Shown: in pieces, positions 5,276 to 36,033 of the stretch | How positions within the stretch are numbered: the first letter of the stretch is position 1 | Layout of the letters: the number at the start of each line of letters is the position of its first letter | The notes under the pieces: model-generated | Told to the model about the DNA's origin: nothing | Database searches by the model: none | The model's input: the letters and a program-made list of their open reading frames with translations, nothing else | Translations under genes and position numbers: made by a program | Origin: Psammoneis japonica | Lineage: Eukaryota | Assembly (NCBI GenBank): GCA_008632985.1 | Contig: QPGO01000066.1 | Location: 203,771-267,770 of the forward strand | Direction: 5' to 3' | Length of the DNA: 64,000 nt

Positions 5276-5326
5276 TTTGGAGACATGGTCGTCTTGATGG
5301 AATCATTCTTGAATGTAACGCGTTGA

Positions 5327-7404: not shown

Positions 7405-8245
7405 TCCCTCGTGAACGAACCGCCGCTGTCGCAGCGAGCGACGAGCGATGATGCAAAAGCGGCGCTGGCAAGAGACATTGACGACAACAAGAGCAAGCCG
7501 CTGACGAGAAATGAATGATCTTCCAGCACTTGCTGTGTTTTTCTTTTTTCTTTTTCACGCCTTGCTGCAATTTGAAATTGCTTCAGAGGGCCCCACAGGG
7601 ATGCCGACGACGAAAGTGTGAGCCGATCGACTTTGAATCATCAAACTCATCACCGACGAATTTGCGCATTTTGCATTTTCTCAGCTGTTTGCTGTGGAGT
7701 CAATTTTGCACCGTTGTAGTTGACAAGATGGAGTGACTCCGTCAACCACAGTGTGCATCAGTGTCCACCTCGATTCCCTGACATGGAGAAGTGCAAGCCA
7801 TTGTGGACGTCTTGTGTTCTCGGATGCCGACAAGTGCTTGACCTCAAAGACCCACGTCACAAAGGCTCTGAGCACTGAATGGTCTGTTGTGGACCGAACG
7901 AGAATGAGATGAGCTGAATGCCGTGCACACCAGTTCAAGGGTGTCGTTGAAAGGGAGTGCCGACAGTGCACCATCGCCGCAGTCCGACGTTGTTTCCATT
8001 GTTTGCGGCAGATCCTGCACAGTGCAGCACAAGCAAAAAACCGGTCTGTCCTCTTCCGACCTGTCTGTCCTCTTGCAAGAGCAAACTGTGCAAAACCACT
8101 CTAAGAAGGGCTCCCCGTTGTTGCACATGCAAACCCTGTCTGCTGGCATCGGTCAGAAGGTCAACAGAGATCTTTGCGAAAACAGCGGGCTAAAAGAGTG
8201 TTGCATCATGGCACAATTGGGGGCCAAAAGCGGCACATCGCCATT
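7405..8245. other. TpA-depleted domain 2 (CpG largely retained)
   Basis: About three TA in ~840 bp while CG is common. Confidence 0.8.
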
Positions 8246-9537: not shown

Positions 9538-12500
9538 ATGTTGTTTCGACATTTCCTGGTGTCGTTGTTGTTGTGTCGCCTTTGCCGAGGCGGCACCTTC
9601 TCGGACAAACGGCTGTTTCGGGCAGTTTGTTTGCGAGTCGTTGGGAAGGATTGCGACTCTGGTTCTCAAGATGGTGCGCCGTGGTACTGCGGTGCTTTCA
9701 AGGAAATGTGCGAGTTCAAGCAAGGAAAAGTCGACAGGAACGGTCTTGATCTGCGTTGCGGCACGTTGCTCAAGACGATGGAAGAAGGCGGCTTTGCAGC
9801 CGTCCTCCGCACCAAGGAAGAGTGTGAATCCTCAAGGAAGATTTGCCGTTGGAGCTCGGGTGGAGCAGCATGGCAACGTCTCGAATGCAAGATTGTTCTT
9901 GGTGGCGCTGAAGATGAGTTTCGTGGCGACCGCGGACGGACAAGAGGCTTGCGTCCAGGACAAAACTTCTTTTCCAGAGTTGGAAGCGGAAAGAAGGGAT
10001 CCAAAGCAAAGAGCAACAGAAAGAAAGGAAAAGGTGAGGGGAAAGGCAATGTTGACATGAAGCCGCGCCAATGCCATGGTTGGCGGAAGAAGCTCTGTGC
10101 CAACGGAAAATGCATCAATCACAAAAAGTGTTGCCCCGAGGACGCATCTTGCAAGCAAGGTGGGACGAGAAAACGTACAAGAGCGCCACGTCCCGCGCCC
10201 CGACCTGGACCAACCAAGAAGCCAGCAGGTGGTAAAGGATTTCCGATTGCCTGTCAAGGCTATGTCGGATGCAGTGACGGGAGCCGTTCTAAACGAGCCA
10301 TTTGCCGCCGTCAAGGAAATAGCGTCCGCACGCTATGCATTTCTAAAAGCCTTGCTTTGCGTCGCCTTGTAGTGCCTGGTTCGGACGGCACTTATTGCGG
10401 CTGCTGCACAACCGAGCAAGAACCTAACCGCCGTCCATCCTATTGTGCGAGGTACGACGGGATCGTTGATGCCTCTTTTATCAAGGATGGACTTGTTCCC
10501 GGGCTGTCTACAGTTGATGAAGATTCGACTTTGGACGTTGCGGGCTCAAGCTATAAGATTGCAGCTACTGGATCGGTTGCCAATGCAGGCCTTGTAATTC
10601 TCTCCAAAGTTTCGCATCTTATTGATTCAGTAGACTGCGTATTCTCAGCACAGGGACAGAGCAAGGTTACCATTATCCTGAAGGCTGGATTGCTCTTTGG
10701 GTCCGTGAAGGAACTGTTTCCTCAAAAAGCTGTGTTGGTGGTCGAGGGTGATGTATTTGGCTCGTGCTTGTTAGATTCGGTACCCGAAAACCAGGTCGGT
10801 ATCGACATTACTCGACTTGACGAGTTTTCTGATGATGGTTACTTAATTATCAAGTCGGTTCAGGGTAGCGATAGGAAAGTAGATGTTTCGGGCGTTGCCA
10901 CGGATTTCTTCTCTCTATTCAAGTCACTAAGCGCCAGGCTCACGCGTTCTGTTATAGAAGCTGGGTCGCAACGTGCTTTAGTCGAATCCTGTTTGGGATT
11001 TGGTATCGAGGGTCCCGAGACAGCTGTCGAAAACGAAGACGCCCCATTTTCGTTCATGTTCGAGGGTCAGGTGTGCGGCAATGTCGGCGTTGATTTCTTC
11101 CTCGATGCCTCTCTTGGCGATATCGACCTTGAACTTAAACTTTCATTTGGGTACAAGGTTCAGGCCAAAGCTGAAGTGGGTTTTGAACGCCAATTCGAAA
11201 CTTTTGAGCCCGTTCAACGGAAGATTCCAACACTTAACTTCGGCAGTATCCCAATCATCCTACGACTTCGCGGGGTTCCACTCAAACTCTTTCTCAAGTT
11301 GAGCGCAGAGAAATTTGTTCTTGAAGCCGATCAGACGGCGTCTATTTTTTCCTTGGCTGAATTCAGCTTAGAGCAGCCTGTCGCTGAAATAACACTGAAA
11401 GTTACAGGTAGCTTACTCGGCGTTGGGTTGCGCGCCGCGGTAGATAGCAGCGTCGCCCCCATGCAGAGCGAAGGCGAGGCAAGTGCTGTAATCCCTGCTT
11501 TAAATGCTGACTACAAAGTCTCGAGCTTTGCTGGGCTTCTTCCTGAGATCATAGGGGCAGCGATTTCAAAACGATTCTCGTTCCTAGTTTCTACAAAAAC
11601 GGGCATGCATATGGAGGGAAAGACCCAAGTGTCACAATACGATGGGAAACAGCTTAATCCAAATGAATTGCCTACCGAAGTTGGTCCATGTGACGAGAAC
11701 CATGATTTTGAATTGACGGTGTCTGCGGGGTCGGGAGGCATCAAGTTTGGATATTACATTGATCTGACCCCTCCAGGGGGGAACCTTGATCCAATCTACC
11801 TTCAAGACTCAGTCGAAATCACGGGAATAAATGATCAGGACTTGTTGCTTGTATGTGATCATTTGGAGGATCAGCCTTCGCTCGAGCCTAGTGTTGAACC
11901 CTCCGATCCGCCGTCATTGAGCCCTTCAGATCAGCCATCATCATACTCTTCCATGTGGCCTTCGGATCAACCTTCTCTGGAACCTAGTGGCGAACCTTCC
12001 GATCAGCCATCATTGAGCCTTTCCGATCAGCCATCGTCAGACCCTTCCATACGACCTTCGGATCAACCTTCTTTGGAACCTAGCGGTGAGCCCTCTGATC
12101 CGACGTCATCGAGTCCTTCCACGCAACCATCAAGTTGCATGAATGATGATGATGATTGTGATGGGGTTCCCGACGCCTTTGACCTATGCCCCGGGGTTGA
12201 CGACATCAATGACCCTTCATGTGTGATCATCACCCAATCGGTTTTCGCTCTGGACAGGTTCAAGACAGATGTATCCCTCGATCAGGAATCGGAGGCTGTA
12301 AAGATTGATTTCATTGTAAAAGAGGAGGGAATGATGAAGTCCTCCTTACGCATGGTTTATGATCCTCAAACAGCAACAGTGCAAGAAATCCATCTTGTCG
12401 TACGGAAAGATGATTCTGAGAGCATACTTGCCACAATAGAAGCAACCAGCGAGGGGGAGAGAAAGAAAAGAACCCTTCATCAGTCTCTGGAAGTACGTTC

Positions 12501-15500
12501 AGGGGGGGCTTCTTATTCTCGCCTGCTGAACGAGGGTTGTTGTGACTTTGGTTCTCTCACCAGATGTGAAGCCGCTTTAGGCGCCATGGCCGGTTACGCT
12601 TGCAGCAAGATATTAACAGAAATTGTTTGTCTTCCTTTTGGTCTTGGAAGAACAGTGTGCAAACAGATAGCAGGAAGATACATGGAGGGCGTGTGTGGGC
12701 TAGGTCTTACCGGTGACGCGGTGGGAAACTTCTTAAAGAGAGGATGCGAAACAGGTCTTGGCTGTTCAGCGGACCCTTGCTGCGGCTCGGAAGATCCTTG
12801 TTGTGGTTCAGACGACGAATGCTGCGGCTCCGATGACCCTTGTTGCGGCTCTGATGACCCTTGTTGCGGCTCGGAAGACGAATGCTGCGGCAATAACGAC
12901 CCTTGTTGTGGTTCAGACGACGAATGCTGCGGCTCTGATGACCCTTGTTGTGGTTCAGACGACGAATGCTGCGGCTCCGATGACCCTTGTTGCGGCAATG
13001 ACGACCCTTGTTGTGGTTCAGAAGACGGATGCTGCGGCTCGGCTTCTTGTGAAGATGATGACAAAGCGCGTTCAGATGGCGACCCGCACATCCTTACGTT
13101 TGACAATTTGGCTTATTCGTGCCAGGGAGAAGGCGAGTTTACCTTGGTGAAGTCGTTGGATTCTGGTCTTCTTGTGCAGACGCGCTTCAAGAAGTCAAAG
13201 TTCAATTCAAGGGTGAGCGTCACGCGCGGATTCGCTGCGCGGGTGAGCGAGAATTCTCCAATAGTACAACTAGCTATTCCCGAAATTGACGGCACTCCGA
13301 TCTTGTACATCGACTCTGTTCTCCACGACACGCTTGTTCCGTACGACGATGAGCATGTCTCCTACACGCCAGCAAGTGGTGGTTCCAGGTTCACCGTGCA
13401 ATTCAAGGAATGGAGGTTGACTGTTGTTGGTCGGATGTCTGGAGATTTCGTTCTGAACGTGGAAGTGTCCATCTCGAAAAACTTCCGCGCAGAACGCATC
13501 GTAGGTTTAATGGGTAGCAACGATGATGACTCAACTAATGACTGGATGACATCGGATGGAACCGTTTTCCGGTGCCAGAAGACCCAGAAGGAGAGGGCTT
13601 ATCTCAATATGAATACTGCGTCACGAACTGGTGTATCCTAAACGAAGACGAGTCTTTGTTCTTCTATGATCAAGATCTTGACTTTTCCTACTACTTTGGG
13701 TGCGATCAGCCATACGAAGGGGACGTAGATCTTTCTGGAGTGAGCGATGAGGTTAGGGATCTTTGTGGCATTGATCAAGAATGCTTGATTGATGGGGTGG
13801 TATTGGGTCTAGACATTGCCCAGAGTACTCTCGAGGGTAAGGCTTCTGCATCACTCCCTCCACATGGGTTCACGATGTCAACTACAATGTTACGTTTACG
13901 GTGAACATCAGTACAGTTCCTCCTATTGAAACAGGCTCCATTGACGCTTATTCGATTTATCACTTGGGTGATCGAACTGTATTTCTTGGAACAGCCAGCA
14001 AGACAACACAGGAGGGCAAGGTGTTTGTCATTACGACATCTCTACGATCGCAGATTGCCGGAGAAAGCTTATCGTTTCAAGCTGTACCGCAAATGAACGG
14101 GGTTGACGTTCCATCGTCACGGCACGTTTTCACTCGATTTAATGGGGCGATTTGCTTTTCTCGAGTATCAGGAATCGGATTGACGAATCTTTTTGCCGAC
14201 CTATCTAATCTTCCCATAGGCGTGAGCTTGTGGGTTTACGACATAGAGGAGGTTTTTCTAGTACAGCGGAATGCCGGAAACAGTACTCAGCTTCTCAGTG
14301 TCCCTGCTACAAAAATTTTTGTCAATGTCATTGATACAAGTGCTGATATTTGGAAACTGGTGGACTGCTTCGCTGGCACTTGTCAATTGATGGATTTCAC
14401 TGCAATGTTGGAGGTGGATGTGTCGAGGCTACCCAATTTGTACGAATTGGAGCTCCTGACAGAATCCGGTAGCAGGTTTCGCAGGGATCTAAATGCTGGC
14501 GGATCTATCGCGTCCTACAAAATTCTTGCCCTACCAAACGTGACCGTTGCCCTACCGAGGGCAGGGGTGCCGGTCCTGTGCGTCCATATTTTGTTCGGGA
14601 CCTCGACTGTTCTTCTGGGTCGTGTCGCGTCGACGACGTGACGAACGACTTGTACGTTAACTTGACTGGACTCGAGGATAATGACTTGGAGATTCGATTG
14701 TATGATTCCGAGCTTGGTGGTGGGCTTCGGTTCATTCGCGACGTTATGAATGAAACGGATTTTACAACCGCCGTCTTGCCATTTGTTTACGACGTTGAAG
14801 TTAGAGATAATTCGGATGGGTTGGCGATCCTCGGAATCAGTGGTGTTGACTGCTCCGGGAGCTCGTGCGCTATTGGCCCATTCAATGCGGTGTTGGAGGT
14901 GGATGTGTCTAAGTTACCGAATCTATACAAAGTGGAGCTCCTGAATGAAGCTGATGGGCGTAGCTTTCGAATCGATCTTGATGCTGGTGGAACAGTCGCG
15001 TCCTACAAAATTCTTACCCTACCAAATGTGACCGTTGCCCTAACCGAGGGCAAGGGGGCTGGGCCAGTGCGTCCGTATTCTGTACGAGACCTTGACTGTT
15101 CTTCTGGGTCGTGTCGCGTCGACGACGTGACGAACGACTTGTACGTTAACTTGACTGGACTCGAGGATAATGACTTGGAGATTCGATTGTATGATTCCGA
15201 GCTTGGTGGTGGGCTTCGGTTCATTCGCGACGTTATGAATGAAACGGATTTTACAACCGCCGTCTTGCCATTTGTTTACGACGTTGAAGTTAGAGATAAT
15301 TCGGATGGGTTGGCGATCCTTGGAACCAGTGGTGTTGACTGCTCCGGGAGCTCGTGCGCTATTGGCCCATTCAATGCGGTGTTGGAGGTGGATGTGTCTA
15401 AGTTACCGAATCTGTACAAAGTGGAGCTCCTGAATGAAGCTGATGGGCGTAGCTTTCGAATCGATCTTAATGCTGGTGGAACAATCGCGTCCTACAAAAT

Positions 15501-16335
15501 TCTTACCCTACCTAACGTGACTGTTGCCCTAACCGAGGGCAAGGGGGCTGGGCCAGTGCGTCCGTATTCTGTACGAGACCTTGACTGTTCTTCTGGGTCC
15601 TGTCGCGTCGACGACGTGACGAACGACCTGTACGTTAACTTGACTGGACTCGAAGATAATGACTTGGAGATTCGATTGTATGATTCCGAGCTTGGTGGTG
15701 GGCTTCGGTTCATTCGTGGCGTTATAAATGAAACGGATTTTACAACCGCCGTCTTGCCATTTGTTTACGACGTTGAAGTTAGAGATAATTCGGATGGGTT
15801 GGCGATCCTTGGAATCAGTGGTGTTGACTGCTCCGTGAGCTCGTGCGCCATTGAACCATTCAATGCGGTGTTGGAGGTGGACATGTTGGGTTTACCCGGT
15901 GTTGGAGCACACCTCATCTTAAAAACTGCTGCCGGGGACACCTTCTTGCGTGATGAGGATGCAGGTGGGGCTCTCAAAAGCTATAACATTTTGGCACTTC
16001 CAGACTTGACGGTTGAGTTGAAAGAACGAGGTGCGGGGCAAGTGAGCTCCCTTGTCATTGAGGACGTCGACTGTTCCTCTGGGGGGTGCAAGGTTGTCGT
16101 GACGAGCAGTTTGTCTATAAATCTTGCTGGTCTTGCCAACGACGTCAGTGTCGATTTGGTCGACCCAGAGAACGGCGGCATTTTCCGTCGAATCTCTGGT
16201 CAGGGGGGTTCGGAGCTTAGCCTCACGGTTCTTTGCGATCTTCGCTACACGGTAAAAATTTTCGATTCAAGCAGCGTCATCTCTGAAGAAACAACAGACA
16301 TGTGTCCGTGTGGAGGGACCTGCAATTTCTCTTAA
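9538..16335 (+). CDS. Giant secreted protein (~2,260 aa if joined): Cys-rich N-terminus, PSxxPS repeats, TSP3-like Ca-binding motif, CCGSDD repeats, von Willebrand factor D domain, 163-aa C-terminal repeats; three frame breaks (~13570, ~13850, ~14555)
   Basis: Signal peptide MLFRHFLVSLLLCRLCRG; DDDCDGVPDAFDLCP; GDPHILTFDNLAYSCQGEGEFTLVK...VGLMGSNDDDSTNDW. Four abutting ORFs continue the same domains. Confidence 0.8.
11870..12135 (+). repeat. Coding PSDQPSLE-type tetrapeptide-period repeat
   Basis: PSLEPSxEPSDxPS repeated in the translation. Confidence 0.9.
12772..13042 (+). repeat. Coding 21-bp minisatellite (about 13 x D[P/E]CCGSD)
   Basis: gacccttgttgtggttcagac-type units in frame. Confidence 0.95.
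14396..16085 (+). repeat. 489-bp coding tandem repeat, ~3.5 copies, near-identical
   Basis: ttcaatgcggtgttggaggtgga starts at 14881, 15370 and 15859 (489-bp period), with a diverged start at 14396. Confidence 0.95.
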
Positions 16336-16369
16336 TTGGTGTTTAGGTATTTTGCGAGACGAGATTAGT

Positions 16370-18910
16370 GCAATTTCATGTTGAATCACATGTGAGCGGC
16401 CGCTCTTCATGGCGCACAATTCCTGGAATTTCCATGCTGTGTTGCGTGTGACTGTGTGCTCAATGATGCAATGCCGATGGCGGTGAACACCCCTCATGCT
16501 GGCCACACACCCCAGGCCATGGCACCACCCACTCACACTGTCAGAGGAGGAGCTCTGCCATTGCAGCAACAAGAACCCTCCTGCCAGCACGTGCTGCGAT
16601 TGGCACCAAGAGCAAGGGCCACAGCCTGCAGCTCCATTCCTGCCTGTGCAGCTACCACAGGAGCTGTGAATCCAAGAGTGCCCCTGCACCACTGCTCTGT
16701 CTCATCTCCCTCTCATCAGAGTTGTTCTGTGAAGATGACTGGGGCTTCTCAAAAAGAAGCAAGTGAAATGGCATGGTTCAGGACTTCCTTGAGGCACCCC
16801 ACACACAAGCAGGTGGCAGCAGCTGCTTTTCTTGACAATGAAAGCTCGGCTCTGCTGCTGGCGGCCATCATTGACGACAATGTGAATGGGCCACACGCCC
16901 TCAACGTGGGGTGGACAGCTTGTGCTTTTTGGCACTCTTTTTCCTGAGTTGGGGGCCGGCCTGCCAGCTTTTTTCCACTTGGCACCAAGCAGCACCTGGG
17001 CCCCAATCAGCATTGGGGTCATCAAGCAGTGGTTGCCAATGCCTCCAATGCCAAAGACGTGCTTGAGTGTGCAAGAAGTTGTGGCAGAGTCTCCATGCTC
17101 TCTCTCTCTCCTCTTTTCTTTGTCAGGCTGCTTCTGCCCAGCAGTGATTTTGCAGCAGCAGCTGTGCACACACAAAGGTGTGTGGAGATTGCAACAACTT
17201 TTTCAGAACACATCAGCTCCACATCCCATTCAGTCATGAGGCCTCATGTGCAGTGTGTGTTGTGTGAGCTGCAGGCTTTCAAGCAAGCAGGGTGTGGCAC
17301 AGAGAAAAGAAAACACAGGGAGGTTCTGGTCATGTTTCAAGGAGCATCCCCATGGGTTGATGACATTCAATGGCTGAATGAGATGCAAAAATTACTCTAA
17401 ATTGTTTCTGGCAACTTTGCAACAGTTGCGCGCACACAAGGGAGCTGGCACCATGGTGTGTTGTGAGTTGTGAGCATGAGCGTCAACGGGGACAGCATGC
17501 ATGATGGTTCGCACGTGATTTTTGGAATTTCAATGTGACCAATGTGGCTGGACAGGGGTCTGGTTTGAATGATGCAAATCTTTTGCACCAAGTCATCATC
17601 CTCATTGATGAGGACATCCATGCTTTTTCACGCAAGTTTTTCACATTTGTTGTGTCATTGACACACAAGTTGTTGTTGTTGTGAGGCTGCTGCCAATCAC
17701 TCTCTCTTGATCATGTTTTGTTGCAGCAGCATTCCTCGACATGCGGCCAGGCCTCTTTGCTTGAGCAGCAGTGCCACTTCTCATTTCAACAATGACAAAT
17801 GGTTTTTGCTCAAGAGCTTTTCTTCTTCAGAAGAACCCCGCGAAAGCATGCCGTGCGATGTCTTGATTGTCGGTTGTGGCCCCACCTGTCTTGCTGCATC
17901 GATTTGTCTCAAACAACTCTGTTTGCAACATGAACAAGATTTGAGTGTTTGTTTGATTAAAAAGGGATCCAAAATTGGCTCTCACATTTTATCTGGAAAT
18001 GTGCTTGATCCCAAGGCCTTGCCAGAATTGTTCCCAGAAGAAAAGGAAACGTGGGTTCAAGATGACTGCCAGTGATCAACCTGCTGCTCAGACTTCATGT
18101 GTCATTTGCAGAGCACAGCAAAGGGAATCAGCATCAATTCAAATGATGTGCAATGGCCCATTCACATGGCTCAATGGACTTGAATGCTGCGCGCATGTGT
18201 GCACACATGGGCTGTGCAAAAATGTGTGTTGAGCTTGACACGCCCAAGCTGCAAGCTGTTCTTTGTCACACAAATGTCCAATTTGAAGTTCAAAACTTGG
18301 CAATCTGACTGTTGTGAAGGGTCCAAGTCAGCACCTCTTGTGCCCACCCAGTGCAAAAAATTCTGAAGCAGATTGCTTGTTGCTGATGAGCATTTTGTTT
18401 GGCAGCTCTTGCAGAGCTGCAAAAATGAGCTCTGAAAAGGAGATTGTGATTTGTCTTGGTCAAAGCACTGCTGTGAGTGGCTGCAGGTGTTTTGGGGACA
18501 GCTCTTGTGATGGTGGAAGACCTCAGAGTTTGGCAAGAGTCCAGCTCAGCTGTGTTTTCCTTCTCGCATCATCTGAAGGCTGCCCAGATGCAGTGCACTT
18601 TTTGACCATTTCAAGAAAAAGAGTGGAGGCAGGTTTGCATTTGCCACCATGCAGGAGATGACTGCACTCATTGCCTGCTTGACAAGTGTCTGCAGTTTTG
18701 GCAACAGAGTGGCGTTTGGAGCCAAAGCAGGCTGTTGGCACTCTCTTTGCTCCGCTCGGCTGTGTGGCTGTGTGGCAGAAGAGAGAGGACTGCTCCTGAG
18801 GGCAAGAGTTGGGTACAGGTGAACATGGTGTGGTCAGCTGGGCATTGGAACAAAGATTCGGACATGTCGCAACAGCTGTTGTCTTGCTGTGTTGTGAGCG
18901 TGCTTGAACA
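16370..18910. other. TpA-depleted domain 3
   Basis: About six TA in 2.5 kb; begins ~35 bp after the VWD gene stop. Confidence 0.93.
17713..18063 (+). pseudogene. ETFDH: 5' partial duplicate of ETF-ubiquinone oxidoreductase (with upstream region from ~17510)
   Basis: Aligns to 19235-19579. GGGPAG is changed to GCGPTC and the copy is truncated after ETWVQD. Confidence 0.97.
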
Positions 18911-19234
18911 GAAATAATTTGGAGGAAAAAAGTGAGTCGCCGCGCACGATGAGCGCGTGATTTTTGGAATTTCAATGTGATCCTAGTGACTGTATACTTT
19001 CATTATTACATATCTTTTGCATCCAATGATCATCGACATTCACGAGGACATTCATACTTTTTCGCGCAAATTTTTCACGCACAAAAATCAAAAAAATCAG
19101 CCGTGATGCGGATTTTCTGACAACCTTTTTGTGACGCGTCGTGTTGCTTCCAACCGTTGGGGGATTGCACACTGTCACATTTATTGTGTCATTGACACAG
19201 TTGTGAGGCTGCTGCCAATCACTCTCTCTTGATC

Positions 19235-21091
19235 ATGTTTCGTTGTAGTAGCATTCTTCGATATGCGGCTAGGCCTCTTCGCTTGAGTAGTAGTACTACT
19301 CGATTCAACAACAAATCGTTGTTCCTCAAGAGCTTTTCTTCTTCAACAGAACCCCGCGAAAGCATGCCGTACGATGTCTTGATTGTCGGTGGTGGTCCCG
19401 CCGGTCTTGCCGCATCGATTCGTCTCAAACAACTCTGTTTGCAACACGAAAAAGAGTTGAGTGTTTGTTTGATTGAAAAGGGATCCGAAATTGGTTCTCA
19501 CATTTTATCGGGAAATGTGCTCGATCCCAAGGCGTTGCAGGAATTGTTTCCCGATGAAAAGGAAACGTGGGTTCAAGATTTTCTCGAGCAACAAGGGTCT
19601 CATGCGACGCCCGTCACCAAGGATGAATTTTTAATTCTCTCCAAATCGAATTCCATCAGAATTCCCAATTTTACTCTACCCCCGCAATTGCACAATGATG
19701 GTAATTATATTATAAGTCTTTCACAATTGTGTCGTTGGCTCGCGACACGGGCCGAAGAAATGGGTGTCGAGATTTATCCCGGCTTTGCTGCATCCGAAGT
19801 CTTGTATGATGAAGCAAAGACTGAAGTACGGGGCGTGGCGACACGCGATGTGGGGTTGGACAAGGACGGAAATTGCAAGGAAACGTATGAACGTGGTGTC
19901 GAGTTGCACGCACGTCAAACCCTCTTTGCCGAAGGTGCACGGGGATCGTGTAGTATGGATGTCATGAAGACGTTTGATTTAAACAAGGACAGTCACCCCC
20001 AGACATATGGATTGGGAATCAAGGAAGTGTGGCAAGTGGAGGAGGGAGATGCGAACTTTCAACCCGGCTTGGTCCAACACACGCTGGGCTTTCCGCTTCA
20101 ATCCAAACTCACGGATAAAGTCTATGGAGGTTCGTTCCTCTATCATCAAGAACCCAATTTAATTTTAGTTGGTTTGGTTGTGGGTTTGGATTATGCCAAT
20201 CCCTATTTGAATCCCTATCAAGAATTTCAACAATGGAAAACGCATCCCTCTGTCGCAAAATATCTCGAAAAGGCCACTTGCATTGCCTATGGTGCACGCG
20301 TTTTGAATGAAGGTGGTTATCATGCCATTCCACAATTGACCTTTCCGGGTGGTGCACTGATTGGATGCAGTGCGGGATTTTTAAATGCCGTCAAAATCAA
20401 GGGAACGCATACGGCCATGAAATCCGGTATGCTTGCCGCACAAGCCACGTATGAGGCATTAATGAACAAAGAAGGTGATGACGAACAAGAAACGGTGGCT
20501 ACAAGTGGTGTATTGGAATTTGATGATTCAGACGCGGTGGAAATTACAGACTATCCCAAACAAGTGTACAGCTCGTGGATATACGACGAATTGTATCAAG
20601 TTCGCAATTGTCATGCAGCCTTTCAAAAGTGGGGTGTCATGGGCGGTTTGATGTTTTCTGGATTGGCGGCACACATTACCAAGGGCAGTGAGCCCTTTAC
20701 GTTATCTCACACGAAAAGCGACGCCGACACGACGCAGGAAGCACAACACTTTGAACCCATTTCGTATCCACCGCCCGACAATGTACTGACTTTTGACTTG
20801 TTGACCAATTTGCAACGCAGCGGGACATACCACGAAGAGAATCAACCCTGTCATTTGCAAATCAAGCCGGATTTGGCCAATATACCCCGTGATGTGTCCA
20901 TGCAAGTCTTTGGTGCACCCGAACAACGCTTTTGTCCTGCGGGCGTTTATGAATATCCCGACGACAAGAATTTAGTGATTAATGGACAGAATTGCATTCA
21001 TTGCAAATGTTGCAGCATTAAAATGCCTCACGAGTACATTCAATGGACCGTGCCCGAAGGTGGTGGAGGACCGCAATATCAAGTCATGTAA
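19235..21091 (+). CDS. ETFDH: Electron transfer flavoprotein-ubiquinone oxidoreductase, mitochondrial
   Basis: Transit-peptide-like N-terminus; DVLIVGGGPAGL FAD motif; EKGSEIGSHILSG; KIKGTHTAMKSGM; 4Fe-4S FCPAGVYE...NCIHCKCC. Confidence 0.98.
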   Translation: MFRCSSILRYAARPLRLSSSTTRFNNKSLFLKSFSSSTEPRESMPYDVLIVGGGPAGLAASIRLKQLCLQHEKELSVCLIEKGSEIGSHILSGNVLDPKALQELFPDEKETWVQDFLEQQGSHATPVTKDEFLILSKSNSIRIPNFTLPPQLHNDGNYIISLSQLCRWLATRAEEMGVEIYPGFAASEVLYDEAKTEVRGVATRDVGLDKDGNCKETYERGVELHARQTLFAEGARGSCSMDVMKTFDLNKDSHPQTYGLGIKEVWQVEEGDANFQPGLVQHTLGFPLQSKLTDKVYGGSFLYHQEPNLILVGLVVGLDYANPYLNPYQEFQQWKTHPSVAKYLEKATCIAYGARVLNEGGYHAIPQLTFPGGALIGCSAGFLNAVKIKGTHTAMKSGMLAAQATYEALMNKEGDDEQETVATSGVLEFDDSDAVEITDYPKQVYSSWIYDELYQVRNCHAAFQKWGVMGGLMFSGLAAHITKGSEPFTLSHTKSDADTTQEAQHFEPISYPPPDNVLTFDLLTNLQRSGTYHEENQPCHLQIKPDLANIPRDVSMQVFGAPEQRFCPAGVYEYPDDKNLVINGQNCIHCKCCSIKMPHEYIQWTVPEGGGGPQYQVM

Positions 21092-21326
21092 GCGGAAAAA
21101 AAGGGCGAGAATGGTGGTATATTATTGATATTTGTATTGGGCGCTTGATGATGGAATCGGGAAAAGAGTATGTTGCAGTAGACTCTGTGTATTTGAGTGC
21201 AAGTAAGAGTTGGAATAGATTATGTCTACTTGTGTAATGTTGCTTTAGAGAAACACATTATTTAGAATGAAATCTTCGTTAGATCCTTGCTACTCCTCTC
21301 TTAAACATGCCTTCCAAAGTTTCTTG

Positions 21327-21383
21327 ATTCTCTCTCTCTCTCTCTCTCTCTCGAACGAACGAACGATAATCTCTCTCTCTCTC
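21327..21383. repeat. (TC)n/(GAAC)n compound microsatellite
   Basis: Direct reading. Confidence 0.9.
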
Positions 21384-21651
21384 TTGAGTGTACAGTAGAA
21401 AGATTCGATCTCTTGCGGTCCTAGAGTACAGTATTTACGTGTCGACCGAATCTCGCGAATAGGTAGACCATTGCCGCCGAACCTCTAACTATTATAGTGA
21501 TATACTAAAAAGAGAATCTCGGCGTACGTTAATACATCGAATATAGATTCCGTTACAATTTTCTGTAAAAGACACATAAACTCCAAGCAGCAGGACAATC
21601 GTTGGCAGTTATTATTGAGATACGCTGCGGGAACTTCATGCTGCATCGGAC

Positions 21652-22851
21652 CTATTCGGCGACATTGTTGTTGGAGTTCTCGCTCTGTCCGCGACCCGAG
21701 TCGTCATCATTGGCAGCAGCAGCCGTCTTGAGACGCTTTACAAGAGTTTCCCGAGTGCCGTCGGGTTGAGTTCCGCTTCCTCGAGCTTCCTACGCATCCT
21801 AGCTACACTCATGTTTTCGATATTGTCCTCGTCTTGGTCCAAAGCCGCGGGCTCATATGCAGCCGCCACCAACTCTCGGAGCAAATCGGGAGAATCCAAT
21901 GACAGAAAAGCCTCTGACTTTCTCACTGCCTCACTGTGGGCTACAAAAAATGCTAGCGCAGCTTCCTTGAGAAGGGCACAGTTCTTACGTTCGGCAAAGA
22001 GAAGCAAGTCGACAACGCTGTCCACCGTAATGGCCGATTCAACCATCTTGGCTTCTACACGAAGCTTGAGACTAACACAGTTATACTTGTCAGCAAAATC
22101 AAGCAACGACATTGCGCCTTTTTCGTCCATGTCGGTGTCCGTGGGAAGTTCGTCAACGTAAGCATACCGCAGAAACGATGAAAAGATGGATGGATCAACA
22201 TCATCAATCATGATCGGAGCCTTCTCTTTGTTGGATTCGCACTCAAATATTTCAGCAAAGCCTGGAGCCCGTTTGGCAAGAATGTTTTTATGCGCCTGAA
22301 AACTCTTGCCACCAACAGAAAAGGAAACATCCGAATAGTCCATTGAGTCGAGCAAATAAGACAAGTCCCTCTGTAAGGTGCTTTTGGGATGCCACATCTC
22401 AGGCATGGCAAGAACATTCTGAATGTCCGCTTTTATCATCAGAGCGCCATTCTCCAGAAATCCATTCTCTGGATCGAGCACAGAATCCCGAGTCTCAAAA
22501 TCTGTCCATCCCCACGATTGATTTTCTTTCTTGAGCTTCGCAGACGCAGTCTCATTTCCAGCTCGAAATGAGAAGTTCGCCTCAACAGGTTCACGACCCT
22601 CCACTTTGGCACGCTTGAAGTACACAGAGAGATGAACCACGTCCTCACTTGACTTATTGTCACCACGTGGATACAGCCGGATCTGCCACAAATTCCCGTG
22701 GCAAGAAAGTGGCTTGGAGATGACTCTTTCTCCGCGTTGATGCGGGAAGATTCTCGAAGTCTTTAAAGCTTACACAGATGGTGTGCTTTGGAGATAGCAA
22801 TTTGTCGCTCTGAACTACATCAGAAGCTACAATGCGTTCTTCGTCCGCCAT
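21652..22851 (-). CDS. MATH-BTB/POZ (SPOP-like) protein with C-terminal SAP-like motif; two 1-nt frameshifts (~22745, ~21764)
   Basis: WQIRLYPRG and WGWTDF (MATH); SDVSFSVGGKSFQAHKNILAKR (BTB). Correcting two C-runs gives NLPHQRGERVIS and ELNPDGTRETLVKRL...VAE*. Confidence 0.88.
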
Positions 22852-23396
22852 GGTGGTTAAAATGTTGAACGTCGTTCCGGTTTTGGAGTTTTGGAATGTT
22901 TTTGCGCCGCGAATGCACGCAGCGCTACTGTGCGCCGCTGCGGCCGCAGGGCACAGACAAACGGACCGCGAGTCACGAAACGCCAGCGCAGAAGTGCCGG
23001 CAACTTTGAACTACGACAAGAGATCCATCGTTCTTGTCACTCCACAATTGTCAGAATTGTCCATGATCTGCTCCATCCCGCGACATCTTTTGCCCTCATC
23101 CCAGCAGTCCATCACAGAGTGGCACGCCATCATGGCTTTCTCATCTGGTTGTTTCGTTTTGCTTTGCCATTTCTTCAACAGCACTGGTTCTCAGCTCCTC
23201 AATCAGCTCAAAGGCCTCAATTTGTCATCATGTTTGTTGAAAACTGCCATTGGTTTTTTTTTTTTTCGAAGACTTCGATGAATCAGCACACATGTGCACC
23301 CTGCTGCCTTTGGAGACAATGTGGAGACATCATTGCCCTGTGTGTGATGATGGATCTGACTGAGTGTGTTGCATCATCCACTGCTCCAGGGAAGTT

Positions 23397-24352
23397 CAGT
23401 GACCGGATCTGCAGATGACAGCCAGACCTGGATGGCCAAGCAGATCTCCTTGAGATTTGTCTCTCACTTTCTTTCTGACTGGTGCTGTTCATCACTGTCC
23501 CAGCACATGTTGGATTGTGCAAGCAGAACCTTGTCTGTTGTGACAGCTGACCGAGTCATGAGTCGTGAGTTGTGTGTGCCAGCGATGACACATCAGACGT
23601 GACTCACAGTCACACACCCAGTGGACAGACATTTCATCACTGTCCTGGCATGCATTGGATTGTGCCAGCAGACCCTTGTCTGTCAGGTCATGAACACCAT
23701 CATGCTGTCCTCCACATCATCAGATGGCTGAGGCTTTGTCTGGGATGGGTCCAACACATTTGATGTCGTTGTTGTCACTGTGTTTGGTTCAATGATCTTC
23801 TCAATGAAGCACTGGCTTAAGATCTTGGTTGCATCATGGCAGAAACCAGGAGGTGTAAATTTGTCCACAATGATTGATGCATCCACAAGAGCACTGGAAA
23901 AGTGGTTGTCCAGGCAAGTGTGGGTGTCTCTGTGAGTGGAGTTGGGTCCAAATTTGAGGTTTGTGGACTTTGTCTTTGTCAAATCAATGGCTTTGGTTGA
24001 CTTGTTGGCCATGGTTGGGCACGCAAAATTTCTGCGCAAAGCTCTGGCATGTGATCCATGATGGTCCTGTTGGTGCAGTTGGTGGGAGAAAAATTGGTGG
24101 TGAGATGGAGATGGCATTTTCTCTTGACAAAAATGGGGCTCTGTGGCACAAATTCTGGTTTGTGTGTTCTGATGATGGCGGAACAGTGCGATGGTGCTCA
24201 TGACCTGACAGACAAGGGTCTGTTGGCACAATCCAATGCATGCCAGGACAGTGATGATGACACAGTGCTGGTTGGAAAGAAAGTGAGAGACTGATGTCAG
24301 GGAGATCTGCTTGGCCATCTGGGTCTGGCCATCCTCCACAGATCCAGCACAC
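23397..24352. repeat. Three copies of a degenerate repeat (23397-23540 +, 23635-23724 +, 24168-24352 -)
   Basis: Shared gatggccaagcagatctcc and catcactgtcctggcatgcattggattgtgc blocks in direct and inverted orientation. Confidence 0.85.
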
Positions 24353-24523
24353 TGACAGCATTGGAAATGATGGTTGGACAATGCATGGATTTGTGTGCTT
24401 TGCAGCAGCAGCAGCATTTGGCCACTGATGGTGCACTGAAATTCCAAAAACCATGCACCCATCATGTGTGACAACTCCTCCCATCTTTGCTCAAGCTCGC
24501 AACATGTGAGACATGTCAAGCAC

Positions 24524-24922
24524 CAATGCATTCTAACTCAGGCAGGGCTGCTTGTGACATTGGGCCCACACAACAATTTTGTGCACAAGCTCCACAGCAA
24601 ATGCATCAGGAGATGATTGTGCAAATGATTGCCAACAGAAAAAGAGGCAAGTTTGTGATCACATCTCCTCTTTCATTCTTGGAGAACATCACTTCTGCTT
24701 TGCCCATGTGTGTGCTTCAGACATTGAAGGCTGCACCCAGTTGGTTTTTCCTCTTGAATTTTGGTGTGACAAAAAGCCTTTGGCTTCACAAAACTGGGAT
24801 CATGAAACAAGTTTGCAGAAGATGACATGTGCAATTGCACGTGTGTGACATGTGGCACATGACAAAAAACTCTGACATCACAGTTCAGCAGCACAAGGTC
24901 CCACCTGGAGCTGGGGTGCATC
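24524..24922 (+). mobile_element. Decayed full-length copy of the ~390-bp MITE at 62535-62924
   Basis: Both ends are homologous (tgtgacattgggccc; cacagttcagcag..aggtcccacct) with similar spacing. Confidence 0.8.
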
Positions 24923-25677
24923 TGCTGTTGTGCCGAAGTTGCTGGAGACAACTTGGAGTGCTTCGCACATCTTGTTCTGTCTTGTTGAATTTTCCACTCT
25001 CTGTGACAGCACAGGAACAAAACTCCCTCCACTCTCTTGCTTTCAACAGCCCAGCCTGTTTCCAAAAAAGCCTGCACATGACTTTCTCAGCTCTGTGTGG
25101 GCTCAACCAAATTTTGCCCAGGATGCATCATTGTTTGTGCCAGCCCCTGTGTGCTCGAAACAAGCACTTTTGTCAAGAGAAGCACATGCCTTTGAAGACT
25201 TTGAGTGCATCACAGTGGAATCAGCAAATCAACTGCTGCAAAGAGCTGCAGTTGGACACAAGATTCTTGCCAAGCTCTGGGTTTTTTCCTCCACTGCAAG
25301 AAGCATTCCCACAATTCCCAGTCAACAATGACACTTTGAAGGGCTGCCAAGGCACAAGCCCCTCTCCATGGTGCTGGAAACTGCCAGGTGTTCCTCCCTG
25401 TCTTGAACCAAGCTCTGAGTCGATTGCTGCTCACACATGGTGCATTGCCAGATGTGATTGCCGCAGTCTTCTGTGCCGTGCAGGCACAAGGAACACCGAC
25501 TTGTATCCTTCACAGAAGTCAGATGGCCAAGCATTGGACATTCAACTTGGGGGTGTTTGTGGCCATCGAGATTCTAGAAGCGCAACTAGAATGAATCCCA
25601 CACACTCCCTCTACTCGTAGCTCGAGCATCATTGATGCTACTAATTATATGATCCCTAGTTATTTCCCGATAATATA

Positions 25678-26913
25678 TTACGTCGACATCGTTGTGTTTT
25701 CTTCTGCTTCGGCAAGTTTCTTCATATCGGCATGTGCTTGCAACGTCAATCCTTGTGTCAATTCCAAAGCTTTGGCCTTTCCAACTCGTTTTGCAAACGA
25801 ATCGAGCCAACCATAAATTTCAGTATGGCTACCAATGACTTTGAACGTATTCAAGCGGTGCTGAAAGTCGTTTGCCGACTTGCGTCCCATAAAGACTTGT
25901 GCTGATCCCATGTAGTGTTGGACTCGAAACATGGCTTCGGAATACGGTGCATTTGGGCCATTGACGCACATTACCGGACTAACACGGTGAGGTGAGCTCA
26001 CGCCGCCTCCATTGTACCGTGACGCGTCAATCATTGGTTTGCCCGGATACAGGTTTTCCAATTCTTGGTGCTTAATATATCGAAGTGTATAAAACAAATC
26101 AACATCAAATCCGTCCGGAGCATACGTTTCGTTGCTGTCTTCGGGTGAAAACAAGACACGAGGAAAAACAACGCATGGCTTTCGAAAATGCCAATATGGA
26201 TCGGTTTGATTCAGCTCATTGGCAATGTAATGAGCCGCCGTTCTTTCTCCAATCCGGGGCACTCTTGTTCGTGGGTGTGTCTTGTTTTCGATCTCTTGTT
26301 GAAATTTCAAATTGCATTCTCTCCTGGATGCATCATCCTTATCAACCGCACACCGCCACGGTTCACCGTCGTCATCATGATAATAGTTGAAAACAAGATA
26401 CTCGTCCGTATCCACCAAGAGCGTCCACGTTCGGTTCTGCCGTTTCAGTGAGTTGAGACAATGATGAATAAATGCCTTTTGACGTCCCCGGTGAAGCTCG
26501 TGGCGTTGGAGGTTGGTCGCATTGTCATTCAGAAACGCTCCCTTTGGCAGGTAATCCTCGTCACGCCACATTTCAATCGTGAAATTTGATAGCGTCCGAA
26601 ACTCCTTCAGAATCGGTTCTGGCGAGATTTTGCTGTATGGATCGACCGCAATAATCAAATGACGGAGTGGCAAGACTTCATAATGATATGCTAGCCATTC
26701 TGGCAAGATGCGATTATCATCCTTGACAATAAGACACGCCGAAAAGGTAAAAGGAAAATCATTGTCAATTTCCGTTTTGACTTTGGGCGGAAGAAAGATT
26801 GCTTCCTCTAGTGACTTTGGGAGAAAGCTGTTGAAGGCCAAATGAAAGTTTCGAGTAAGACCGAGGACCGCGATTATGGCTACAACGAGCAAGCTCTTTG
26901 AAAAGGGAGTCAT
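25678..26913 (-). CDS. Glycosyltransferase-like type II membrane protein (GT-A fold, GT2/GT92-like), paralog 1
   Basis: N-terminal hydrophobic anchor; SACLIVKDDNRILPEWLAYH; DxD motif VDTDEY; C-terminal VQHY. Confidence 0.88.
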   Translation of the reverse strand: MTPFSKSLLVVAIIAVLGLTRNFHLAFNSFLPKSLEEAIFLPPKVKTEIDNDFPFTFSACLIVKDDNRILPEWLAYHYEVLPLRHLIIAVDPYSKISPEPILKEFRTLSNFTIEMWRDEDYLPKGAFLNDNATNLQRHELHRGRQKAFIHHCLNSLKRQNRTWTLLVDTDEYLVFNYYHDDDGEPWRCAVDKDDASRRECNLKFQQEIENKTHPRTRVPRIGERTAAHYIANELNQTDPYWHFRKPCVVFPRVLFSPEDSNETYAPDGFDVDLFYTLRYIKHQELENLYPGKPMIDASRYNGGGVSSPHRVSPVMCVNGPNAPYSEAMFRVQHYMGSAQVFMGRKSANDFQHRLNTFKVIGSHTEIYGWLDSFAKRVGKAKALELTQGLTLQAHADMKKLAEAEENTTMST

Positions 26914-27493
26914 GGTCGTTTTTTCACAATGAAAGCAACAACAACAGGTGCACTGAGTCCATTTCCTCCTTGATCGTGTAGCGAAAGCTCAACGGACCAA
27001 AATGAAACGGATGGAAAAAGTGGCCGGGGAAATATTTATCGATCATACAGATATAAGGATTTATGTATAGAGTCATTCATTGCAATGAAGTGCGATATAT
27101 GTAGCCGTAATGTGTCATTAAGTCGATATTCAGGCTGTATATAAATTTTAATACAACATCCACGACAGTCTTTTGTAAAAAGGCAACGTATGTACGACTA
27201 CATAAGGAAGTCTTTCTGACTCATAATTGCTAGGAATGTCATCTAGCTTCTTTCCTAAGTACAATGACGCAGAGCTTTCTTGATGAAGTTGTATCTTTCC
27301 GCTTGCGTGCCACGTGCAACCTTCGTGATAGATGGTGACAACATATCTCAACATGCATACCGTGTATTCAAACATCGGAAGCCACGTAGACTCTGTAGGG
27401 AATTATGCCGTACGGTAGGTAGGTGAGGCACGCACTTGTTCCCGTTTTGTTGTTGCTGCGGGGCGTGAAGTTGTTGTTGCCGTTGTATTCACC

Positions 27494-28462
27494 ATGACGC
27501 CGCCTCTTTCGGATGCAAGTCCAGCCAATGGCTCGTTTCAATACCATTTTTCCGATGAGGACCTGAAGGAATTCTCATGGCAATTGGATGATCATCATCA
27601 TCATCATCCTCCTGCAGCAACAGCAACCGAAGGTGACGCTGAGGTTCCCGCTGTAGCTTCTACGGCGACTCCTGGTACAACATCGAAACCACCACAAATT
27701 CCTCCCACTGTACCGACTGAAATTGCCAAACCAGAGCTTAGCTTGGTGTCATCCTCCAAACCGGATGCATCTCGTGCTCAACGCAAACGATCGCGTGAAA
27801 AGCAAAGGAGATGCGATATCAATAATCAATTCAGTGACTTACAGCAGACCTTACGAAGCATCGAAGTGGAGCGTAATTCTACTCAGGGAATGTTGCAAAC
27901 CAACAATCGGGTCGATTTGATTGCACGTACTAAAGCCCTGTTAGAAGAGCTGCACGAAGAAACCAAAAAGCAGAAAACCGAAAAGGAGGCCTTGGAAAAA
28001 GATCTGGCGGACACGAGGAAGATTGCCGAAGACACCGCGGCGCGGCTGAAGGAGGCAACTCTGTACCACCCAGGAGTCCCACAAAAGCAAGTCATGATGA
28101 TGGTTCCCATGATGGTCCCTGCCGGTGCAACACCGGGATCGACTGCCACTGTCGTACCAGCTACTGGTACAACAGCAGCAACAACTGCAACGACAACCAC
28201 CGATGCTTCTGGTTCTGGTACAGCAACTCCTACTCCACCCGCCGTTTATGCCGTGCCGCAGCCATTCATGCCTTCGCCCTTTATGGGAATGATGCAGCCC
28301 GGAATGCAACCAGGCATGATGCCTTTTATGCAGACGAACCCAATGGCTCCACACACTGGTGTTCCGGCTCCAGCGGACGGAACGACTACTACAAGTCCGG
28401 TTTGGAAAAACGTTCACTCCTCTAGCACGACACAGGGAGGCAACTTGGCACACTGTGCCTAA
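27494..28462 (+). CDS. bHLH transcription factor
   Basis: RKRSREKQRRCDINNQFSDL...NRVDLIARTKALLEEL followed by a coiled coil and a Pro/Met-rich tail. Confidence 0.92.
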   Translation: MTPPLSDASPANGSFQYHFSDEDLKEFSWQLDDHHHHHPPAATATEGDAEVPAVASTATPGTTSKPPQIPPTVPTEIAKPELSLVSSSKPDASRAQRKRSREKQRRCDINNQFSDLQQTLRSIEVERNSTQGMLQTNNRVDLIARTKALLEELHEETKKQKTEKEALEKDLADTRKIAEDTAARLKEATLYHPGVPQKQVMMMVPMMVPAGATPGSTATVVPATGTTAATTATTTTDASGSGTATPTPPAVYAVPQPFMPSPFMGMMQPGMQPGMMPFMQTNPMAPHTGVPAPADGTTTTSPVWKNVHSSSTTQGGNLAHCA

Positions 28463-28599
28463 GGGAAAAGAGTGCAGTGTGTTGTGTCACACAACAGCTA
28501 GAATACTCAGGATTCGTCTTTAAAAAGGAATCCACACAAAATGGGAACTCAAAATAGAGTGTTTTAAAATAAAAAGATCTTGCATAATGAAGGACATTC

Positions 28600-35810: not shown

Positions 35811-36033
35811 AATCTCTTGGAGAATGACCGACAAATTTTCGAAATTGAACGGAAACTCGGAACCGCGTTTGTTTTGGTTGTTGGTGTTGGGGGTTAGTTG
35901 GCATGCGTGCTGTTCACTGTGTGCTCTATTGCTCATTGCTTACCTCACGCCATTGAATGAAACGAAAACGCATGAGACAAAAACAAACTACACAGAAAGT
36001 GGCAGCTTGAAAGAGACACTAATCAAGAAGAGA

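Follow-up and report, generated by a model that had tools for sequence, protein, structure and literature searches.

Probable domain-targeted TpA hypermutation in diatom DNA, with a truncated ETF-QO gene duplicate among its targets

The closest described system to the one presented here is that of the rhizarian Bigelowiella natans (Mettrop et al., bioRxiv 10.64898/2026.01.13.699255), summarized as set out in the portions of that preprint used here. In mutation-accumulation lines of this alga, two integrated viral regions received 231 of the 302 new substitutions; nearly all of these changes were A>G or T>C, the A>G and T>C changes were all located on TpA dinucleotides, and they occurred in some lines only. 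The genome of B. natans also contains 124 clusters of windows poor in TpA and rich in CpA+TpG, reverse transcriptase (RT) domains are enriched among its TpA-poor genes, and the authors propose a defence system based on an ADAT2-like DNA adenine deaminase (bioRxiv 10.64898/2026.01.13.699255). We studied a stretch of 64,000 nucleotides of Psammoneis japonica (GenBank assembly GCA_008632985.1, contig QPGO01000066.1, positions 203,771 to 267,770 of the forward strand; hereafter the window), which carries an intact gene for ETF-ubiquinone oxidoreductase (ETF-QO), a truncated copy of this gene and a Ty3/Gypsy-type retroelement. The copy and the retroelement have lost nearly all their TpA dinucleotides, and the intact gene has kept them. 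Our preferred reading, at a probability of roughly 0.8, is a hypermutation of TpA to TpG or CpA that is targeted to domains of silenced DNA, with a slower decay of CpG on top of it (see below). All coordinates are positions in the window, and those of the main features are collected in Table 1.

A local alignment paired the copy with positions 18952-19579 of the parental locus, i.e., with about 280 bp of upstream DNA and 115 codons of the gene. Its 528 columns contained 67 substitutions (37 transitions and 30 transversions; 87.3% identity). Across the shared 628 bp the parent kept 18 of 18 TpA and is thus untouched by TpA loss, and the copy kept only one of these 18, together with 11 of the 29 aligned CpG. 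Depending on the alignment, 12 to 14 of the 17 lost TpA had changed to CA or TG through single transitions. The segment 19176-19579, on which the original prediction was based, has 11 parental TpA (19182, 19246, 19249, 19262, 19270, 19288, 19291, 19294, 19297, 19370 and 19506). Rechecking the alignment used by the earlier reader, in which 19286-19301 (AGTAGTAGTACTACT) is set without gaps against 17764-17779 (AGCAGCAGTGCCACT), reproduced exactly the predicted outcome of seven CA, three TG and one retained TpA. The automatic alignment places a 3-bp gap at this point and gives eight transitions, one transversion and one gap-split site among the 11; the retained TpA (19506, equivalent to 17990 in the copy) is the same in both versions. 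Over the whole pair, the automatic alignment contained 17 aligned TpA, of which six appeared as TG, six as CA and four as other dinucleotides, one being kept. All seven parental TpA of the upstream part (18952-19074) were gone in the copy, and the only other TA in the copy, at 17958, is new and derives from a G>A change. As for CpG, the prediction of about eight changed and about nine retained sites in 19176-19579 stood as to the retained ones and was nearly right on the transitions, but it had overlooked the transversions: the 23 parental CpG comprised nine transitions, five transversions and nine retained sites. For the whole pair, 12 of 29 CpG had changed to TG or CA.

The original prediction had set in advance a Fisher test of substitutions at TpA against those at other A/T sites. 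Transitions affected 12 of 36 TpA sites vs 11 of the 266 A/T sites outside TpA (odds ratio 11.6, p=7e-7), and within 19176-19579 the figures were 8 of 22 vs 5 of 200 (p=2e-6). Note that the transition rate per TpA site has a ceiling of one half, because a single change is enough to destroy a TpA. Transitions were likewise concentrated at CpG sites (12 of 58 vs 2 of 168 other G/C sites, p=2e-6). Outside these two dinucleotides, A/T>G/C transitions were seen at 11 of 266 sites and G/C>A/T transitions at 2 of 168 (p=0.09, not significant); this excess may reflect a weak off-target activity of the same process. The TG and CA outcomes formed 5 strand runs for 14 events along the pair where about 8 were expected, a hand count that gives a weak signal.

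Exactly 100 parental bp (19075-19174) have no counterpart in the copy. As originally noticed, the tetranucleotide TCAC occurs at both 19075 and 19175 in the parent, and the local alignment shows a single TCAC at the junction in the copy. The difference could be due either to a deletion in the copy or to an insertion in the parent. An intron was considered for this segment and rejected, as none of the five possible boundary placements presented GT..AG ends. The copy in turn has extra bases relative to the parent in four small insertions of 8, 12, 3 and 3 bases. Translated searches of the window found no further ETF-QO homology, and an extension of the duplication upstream of 17510/18952 was not significant, since 54 of 1000 random TA-free segments scored as high.

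The parental open reading frame (ORF) is listed from a TTG at 19229 and its first ATG is at 19235. Its translation is a full-length ETF-QO with a mitochondrial presequence, in which Pfam recognized Fer4_ETF_QO (1e-37), ETFQO_UQ-bd (6e-37) and FAD_binding_2, and it keeps the GGGPAG (GxGxxG) motif; by these features it belongs to the ETF-ubiquinone oxidoreductases. The closest database relatives were 70-71% identical, all the named ones were from diatoms, and the diatom orthologs covered 93-100% of the query; the window is diatom nuclear DNA. The direction of change was determined by aligning the conceptual translation of the copy with the parent and 13 diatom ETF-QO orthologs, a comparison with distant proteins that polarises coding residues and has non-coding TpA outside its reach. 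From residue 40 onward parent and copy differed at 14 positions, at 12 of which the orthologs favoured the parent, at one the copy (E74D), with one tie. Residues lost in the copy included those of GGGPAG, which now reads GCGPTC, an invariant Arg changed to Cys (CGT>TGT), a Glu of SEIG (now SKIG) and a Tyr/Phe position that became Cys (TAC>TGC). All ETF-QO Pfam domains were found in the parent and none in the copy. To judge from these residues, the copy is the derived form and is dead, in agreement with the earlier claim that the intact gene is the functional one and that the pair has a direction. It had also been claimed that a non-transposon sequence was hit while its parent was spared; this holds as well, with the addition that the copy lies inside a block of TA-free DNA.

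This block is one of several. In 1-kb bins, ordinary DNA of the window had observed/expected (o/e) ratios of 0.35-0.87 for TA and about 1 for CG, as compared with 0.00-0.14 for TA, 0.04-0.46 for CG and 1.64-1.98 for CA+TG in the blocks (1-4000, 38001-45000 and others). With blocks delimited by TA-free gaps, the TA-free stretches, a list that includes four short ones inside ORFs, amounted to 22.7 kb (35% of the window) and held 29 TpA (o/e 0.02), the rest holding 1584 (o/e 0.55). The GC content of the blocks was unchanged (0.46-0.50 vs about 0.47 overall). Relative to the rest, deep blocks had 35.6 TpA and 43.1 CpG less per kb and 39.6 TpG and 42.2 CpA more, so that 78.7 TpA+CpG lost are matched by 81.8 CpA+TpG gained, the balance predicted by a conversion of both self-complementary dinucleotides into CpA/TpG. 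The stretch 16367-18814, in the block that holds the ETF-QO copy, had 5 TpA in 2446 bp (o/e 0.03; CG o/e 0.25) where about 94 were expected at the density of the rest (Poisson 1e-33). The left edge of this block is 31 bp past the stop codon of the upstream ORF (16335), and its right edge, at about 18915-18984, falls at the start of the parental homology. Edges in general were resolved within less than 100 bp at the flanks of TpA-normal genes; at 45762, for instance, a 650-bp TA-free gap is followed by a TpA about every 10 bp. The short intergenic spacers, promoters and synonymous sites that adjoin the blocks had normal TpA. In the older blocks the CpG o/e was 0.11-0.45.

The Ty3/Gypsy-type element shows the same loss of TpA. 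Its TA o/e was 0.00-0.05 in TA-free stretches, with nine TpA left in the kilobase of the RT (31716-32766), and its CG o/e was near normal (0.68-0.83). Because TpA is nearly gone and CpG largely kept, the process acting on TpA is much faster than CpG decay and separate from it. The RT-RNase H region, 430 codons with one TGA read as X, contained no Tyr at all, whereas 40 close homologs averaged 18.6. We defined conserved Tyr columns as those with Tyr in at least 60% of 120 homologs, which gave 19 columns, 17 of them covered by the element. At these 17 columns the element had 10 Cys (TGT/TGC), 7 His (CAT/CAC) and nothing else, and its catalytic YxDD motif reads HVDD. At other conserved columns it matched 181 of 237 (76%), as compared with a median of 83% and a 5th percentile of 76.5% among the homologs. 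Along the element, the TG and CA outcomes formed 11 strand runs for 16 events in the alignment with the 40 homologs, i.e., they were not clustered. Being TA-free is not a trait of this element family, since relatives in metagenomes had TA o/e of 0.45-1.08 (median 0.74) and none showed a multi-kb TA-free run, in a survey of the best 80 of 461 loci with search patterns that favoured unmutated copies. Two public Gypsy-type polyproteins from other sources (JGI/IMG) presented a related pattern: P0128 had 3 Tyr, 9 Cys and 5 His at the 19 conserved Tyr columns and matched 246 of 281 non-Tyr conserved columns, and P0181 had 3 Tyr, 6 Cys and 2 His at 12 conserved Tyr columns. Judged by their residues, these proteins carry the same footprint in a fresher form. 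A relaxed BLAST comparison of 27500-31600 with 34500-38500 revealed no long terminal repeats (LTRs) of the element, so LTR dating was impossible.

These data bear on the possibility of a slow, untargeted context bias, in which TpA and CpG would be lost at a steady neutral rate all over the genome and be retained in genes by selection, so that old DNA without function would become TA-free by drift. The oldest-looking blocks are indeed the most depleted in TpA and CpG alike, and the ETF-QO copy carries ordinary divergence of about 7%. However, a steady rate would hardly take 17 of 17 conserved Tyr codons from the Gypsy element while three quarters of its other conserved residues persist and its CpG stays near normal, nor would it leave P0128 with most of its non-Tyr columns and only three of its 19 Tyr columns. 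TpA is normal in spacers, promoters and synonymous sites next to block edges sharper than 100 bp, and holding every synonymous and untranslated TpA there is beyond what selection can do. We regard this bias as improbable, though the least so among the alternatives considered here.

Other sequences in the blocks were also affected. A foldback repeat at 62380-62940 could be compared with an old block copy at 959-1327: of its 16 TA, one was kept and nine had become CA or TG in the old copy, and of its 25 CG, two were kept and 19 had become CA or TG. The former looks like a young foldback or MITE-like (miniature inverted-repeat transposable element) insertion; its inverted arms (62395-62535 and 62784-62924, 141 bp each) are 99.3% identical, have normal TpA and lie between TA-free stretches. 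In the fragment of a glycosyltransferase-family gene that lies in TA-free DNA, DEY became NEH and NYYH became SSCH, with His or Cys in place of Tyr. The block 23013-25504 contains a repeat of approximately 100 copies (24208-25141), with a word depth of 4935-5879 in a public sequencing run vs about 57-60 elsewhere; many loose contig ends were seen at 24620-24914 within it. The targets seen are the Gypsy element, the foldback repeat, the ~100-copy repeat and two host-gene fragments, and most of the depleted DNA has no recognisable domain: none of 107 ORFs of at least 90 codons in the depleted blocks (108 were found) reached the Pfam cut-off, the best being a weak DUF6550 match (E=0.0014). Many of these ORFs are long and spurious because the stop codons TAA and TAG are missing from the blocks. 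Self-BLAST of the window for blocks that repeat each other returned short diverged matches only. Since the Gypsy element, a second gene fragment and the foldback repeat were hit as well, the TpA effect is tied to the block; it is a property of the block and not of the duplicate.

The same observations weigh on a homology-dependent mechanism like fungal repeat-induced point mutation (RIP), whereby the duplication itself would trigger mutation of the repeated DNA. Duplicates and repeats are among the mutated sequences, and DNMT4 enzymes related to fungal RID are described in diatoms, as RID-like enzymes of unknown function in the part of the source used here (PMC9998398), though nothing in our data links DNMT4 to the TpA process. 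On the other hand, the parent gene lies 1.4 kb away from the copy, has 528 aligned bases in common with it and kept 18 of 18 TpA, and the depletion is just as strong in the flanks of the copy, which are single-copy by word depth and match nothing else in the window. It follows that homology does not set off the process and that its unit is the block. The direction is also reversed, TpA being destroyed and not made. A mechanism of this kind is very unlikely.

We also considered editing at the RNA level, in which transcripts of retroelements would be A-to-I edited next to a U by an ADAR/ADAT-like enzyme before their reverse transcription and insertion. In favour of this, the target that is best preserved is a retroelement, and known A-to-I editors favour a 5' U (as stated in the portion of bioRxiv 10.64898/2026.01.13.699255 used here). 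Yet both strands were affected about equally, to judge from the 10 Cys and 7 His of the Gypsy element and the 6-7 CA and 6-7 TG of the ETF-QO pair, and the ETF-QO copy includes promoter DNA and a 100-bp gap with microhomology in place of intron-like ends. Whole blocks were converted, including a repeat that resembles a DNA transposon. Moreover, we compared nine duplicate pairs in or adjoining blocks, one of them in a TpA-normal insertion and two with a block set against the TpA-normal foldback repeat. Among their 126 adjacent double differences the largest class was CA opposite TG, with 36 cases, and the second largest had 10, as would result if the two copies had each resolved one ancestral TpA or CpG on their own. 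The copies were therefore converted independently after duplication, which argues for an action on DNA in place, and we give little credence to an RNA intermediate.

An insertion of about 1.16 kb with terminal inverted repeats (TIR) interrupts the RNase H region of the Gypsy element (32699-33858). Its TpA is mostly normal, except for a TA-free left end, and reading by eye shows TG and CA in its left inverted repeat at places that are TA in the right one. It contains an internal tandem repeat (33134-33540). The presence of TpA-normal insertions in TA-free DNA, namely this one and 62306-62987, suggests a process that does not act without interruption at any one place; young insertions of this kind are a hint of episodic action.

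The bases next to TpA influenced its fate. At 13 sites one adenine of the TpA had a 3' pyrimidine and the other a 3' purine, and the change had fallen on the adenine followed by the pyrimidine in 11 cases, namely at 7 of 8 sites of the ETF-QO pair and 4 of 5 sites in Gypsy Tyr codons (p=0.02). The 51 TpA surviving in deep blocks and the Gypsy element were distributed as RTAY 1, RTAR 8, YTAY 16 and YTAR 26, vs 473, 362, 441 and 260, respectively, in the rest of the window (chi-square 46.9, p=4e-10); TTAA made up 13 of the 51 survivors. Thus RTAY is the most sensitive context and is erased first, and YTAR is the least sensitive and goes last. A rough composition balance suggests an order of loss of TAC > TAT, TAG > TAA. 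For CpG, loss occurred without 5' context, the residual fractions being 0.21 for ACG, 0.22 for CCG, 0.31 for GCG and 0.17 for TCG. A preference for TCG, as would be left by a dual ADAT2-like enzyme, was looked for and not seen, the TCG value of 0.17 lying within the range of 0.17-0.31.

As a control of the sequence itself, contigs built from 31-letter words of a public run (which we guess to be DNA) matched 15785-19229 at a depth of 57-68 with two differing letters. Both of these, at 16698 and 18753, were CpG/TpG variants, which fits with ongoing CpG decay in the block. In a second run of the same sample, of unknown kind, the listed contigs fell on gene parts only (13383-14634, 15785-16333 and 19152-22880). 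There were none on 16736-19070 or 23274-27000; the latter includes the TpA-normal gene 25678-26913, so this distribution is no sign of silence. Heavily modified DNA can mislead some base callers, and a systematic base-calling or assembly error at modified bases could in principle imitate a loss of one dinucleotide. The agreement of the public run speaks against this, as do the indels and transversions that also separate the copies, the replacement of Tyr by Cys or His, which is consistent at the codon level, and the same footprint in unrelated public proteins. We consider such an artefact the most improbable of the four alternatives.

Under the reading preferred here, domain-targeted hypermutation of silenced DNA, TpA would be converted to TpG or CpA in non-genic, probably silenced blocks, nearly to saturation, with a single A:T>G:C transition on one or the other strand at each site. 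In the same blocks CpG would then be lost more slowly to TpG/CpA, as is typical of methylated DNA. What the data show of this are the footprint, its polarity, its confinement to blocks, its separateness from CpG loss and the flank preference. A duplication at the DNA level would have put the ETF-QO promoter and 115 codons 1.4 kb upstream of the gene, inside or adjoining a block, where the fragment would have been treated as the rest of the block and the neighbouring active gene spared. As the fragment was converted and the neighbouring gene was not, targeting is by domain and not by sequence homology, and the fragment is collateral damage of block-wide TpA hypermutation. We infer that the domain is marked by its chromatin, by its transcription state or by being foreign; the blocks may plausibly be silent, and the process would presumably serve in defence. 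The natural target adenine of TadA/ADAT enzymes follows a U. The chemistry would be a change of adenine to hypoxanthine in 5'-TA-3', best in TAY, by a TadA/ADAT-like or other DNA deaminase. In amphioxus, ADAT2 can deaminate both A and C in DNA and prefers GAA and TCG, not TpA, according to the part of the source used here (PMC10354150).

Several points weigh against this reading or limit it. Outside TpA and CpG the ETF-QO copy has diverged by about 7% (32 of 434 sites; 19 transversions and 13 transitions), so it is no clean snapshot of the process; the copy is old, and its TpA loss could have been partly gradual. Transversions occurred at 5 of 36 TpA sites, mostly in the poorly aligned 18981-19011, and five CpG of the copy were also lost in this manner. 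A tetranucleotide ratio for the flank preference was 1.39 in deep blocks and 1.21 in the rest, but 1.14 in the Gypsy element. Ancestral composition was approximated by that of the rest of the window in the mass balance and in part of the flank analysis. The foreign or transposon origin of the deep blocks is assumed, except for the repeats described above, because they have no recognisable protein domains. The confirming run may come from the sample behind the assembly, for which reason it excludes an assembly slip more than a platform bias. Finally, the footprint cannot separate A>G from T>C on the opposite strand.

Table 1 Main features of the window (positions from the first letter of the 64,000-nucleotide stretch)
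Feature	Coordinates	Strand	Basis or remarks
TA-free, CpG-poor block with old foldback copy (959-1327)	1-3977	.	6 TpA in 3975 bp, CG o/e 0.25
TA-free, CpG-poor block holding the ETF-QO copy	16367-18950	.	7 TpA in ~2.6 kb
Truncated, hypermutated ETF-QO duplicate (upstream region + first 115 codons)	17510-18063	+	Local alignment
Parental upstream region common to the copy	18952-19234	+	8 TpA, normal density; includes the 100 bp without counterpart in the copy
ETF-ubiquinone oxidoreductase (ETF-QO) gene, intact parent	19235-21091	+	ORF, translation, Pfam domains
TA-free, CpG-poor block	23013-25504	.	3 TpA in 2490 bp; contains high-copy sequence 24208-25141
Glycosyltransferase-family fragment in TA-free block	29276-29482	+	tblastn, 45% identity to the 25678-26913 paralog, E=6e-15
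Ty3/Gypsy-type retroelement	29729-35481	+	RVT_1, RT_RNaseH, Integrase_H2C2, rve (Pfam)
TIR insertion (~1.16 kb) in the Gypsy RNase H region	32699-33858	.	8-bp direct repeat TCGAAAAC at the ends, by eye
Largest run of TA-free, CpG-poor blocks	37653-45762	.	Right edge sharp, 290 bp upstream of a glycosyltransferase ORF
TA-free block, CpG intermediate, continuing past the window end	62988-64000	.	1-kb bins, TA-free gaps

Among the remaining sequences of the window there are five glycosyltransferase-like paralogs with weak Glyco_tranf_2_4 matches, one in the negative strand (25678-26913) and four in the positive strand (35788-37320, 46048-47307, 55779-57053 and 57639-58913). They are 66-83% identical to each other in DNA, and TA-free blocks lie between them. 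Tandem copies that are 90-94% identical, with a repeat period of about 487 bp, span 14396-15881, inside the ORF 14578-16335. Short TA-free stretches of 199-699 bp with normal CpG occur in partly coding ordinary DNA (5825-6050, 7402-8102, 9686-10176 and 12895-13095); these could be a composition effect of repetitive coding sequence or small recent conversion tracts.

If this process also acts in diatoms, and to saturation, it would be no curiosity of one alga but a widespread way of disabling mobile DNA in major primary producers. Its footprint is easy to screen for: no TpA, doubled CpA/TpG, and RTs with Cys or His for every Tyr. The ETF-QO pair, the Gypsy element and the foldback pair provide polarised substrates, and the flank preference helps to restrict where the enzyme should be sought. 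A natural enzyme able to make G:C out of A:T at one defined dinucleotide of double-stranded genomic DNA would be relevant to base editing. For annotation, blocks without TAA and TAG will yield long spurious ORFs. A broader and more tentative proposal, which we find possible but hold with less than even confidence, is that diatoms have a natural, strictly TpA-specific DNA enzyme system with TAY preference, belonging to an old genome defence across the SAR supergroup (Stramenopiles, Alveolates and Rhizaria) and held in common with Rhizaria. If that were true, a probable adenine deaminase would be recruited to silent chromatin and erase TpA from transposons and from DNA caught alongside, thereby removing every Tyr codon and every TAA and TAG stop, in a mirror image of fungal RIP, and a large fraction of these genomes would be shaped by the system.

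Three known processes resemble in part what is seen here. Fungal RIP likewise acts in a burst of transitions at a specific dinucleotide, kills repeated or mobile DNA, can catch gene duplicates and leaves compositional blocks. However, it changes CpA to TpA, through C>T at CpA or another CpN, and leaves DNA rich in AT and TpA, whereas here TpA was removed, CpA+TpG raised and the GC content stayed at 0.46-0.50; and it is triggered by duplication and usually mutates both copies, whereas here the parent was spared. In repeat-rich DNA, methylated CpG decays to TpG/CpA irrespective of further context, which agrees with the CpG component of the blocks, where methylation itself is presumed, but this decay cannot explain the loss of TpA, which was faster and took place in the Gypsy element with CpG near normal. 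Editing by deaminases (APOBEC, C>U on DNA; ADAR, A>I on double-stranded RNA) also produces clustered transitions that disable mobile elements, although APOBEC acts on C, and ADAR needs double-stranded RNA and does not strictly require a 5' U, both unlike the process described here.

The comparison with B. natans is the closest one. In both organisms TpA changes to TpG or CpA by transition on either strand, here in the ETF-QO pair and in 17 of 17 Gypsy Tyr codons, and in both the change is confined to regions whose neighbouring DNA is normal, here with edges within less than 100 bp and an untouched parent gene. Bins of the window exceed by a wide margin the thresholds used for TpA-poor, CpA+TpG-rich windows in B. 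natans. The two cases also differ. B. natans is a rhizarian in which new mutations were measured, and the present case is a diatom with a footprint only. In B. natans the main targets are a giant-virus and a virophage insertion in which many TpA are left (Rho of 0.45 for the region), as compared with an o/e of 0.02 over about one third of the window. Here the sequences hit are a Gypsy element, repeats and fragments of two host genes, and the older blocks have lost CpG as well. The flank preference found here, with RTAY lost first and YTAR last, has no counterpart in the Results and Discussion of the B. natans report, which give no preference beyond TpA and mention neither CpG nor diatoms. In the literature searched, with most subscription journals outside its reach, we found no report of TpA hypermutation in diatoms. 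TpA-specific hypermutation is already in print for one protist; the locus described here adds a stramenopile, widens the range of targets to transposons and host-gene fragments, and shows the footprint close to saturation.

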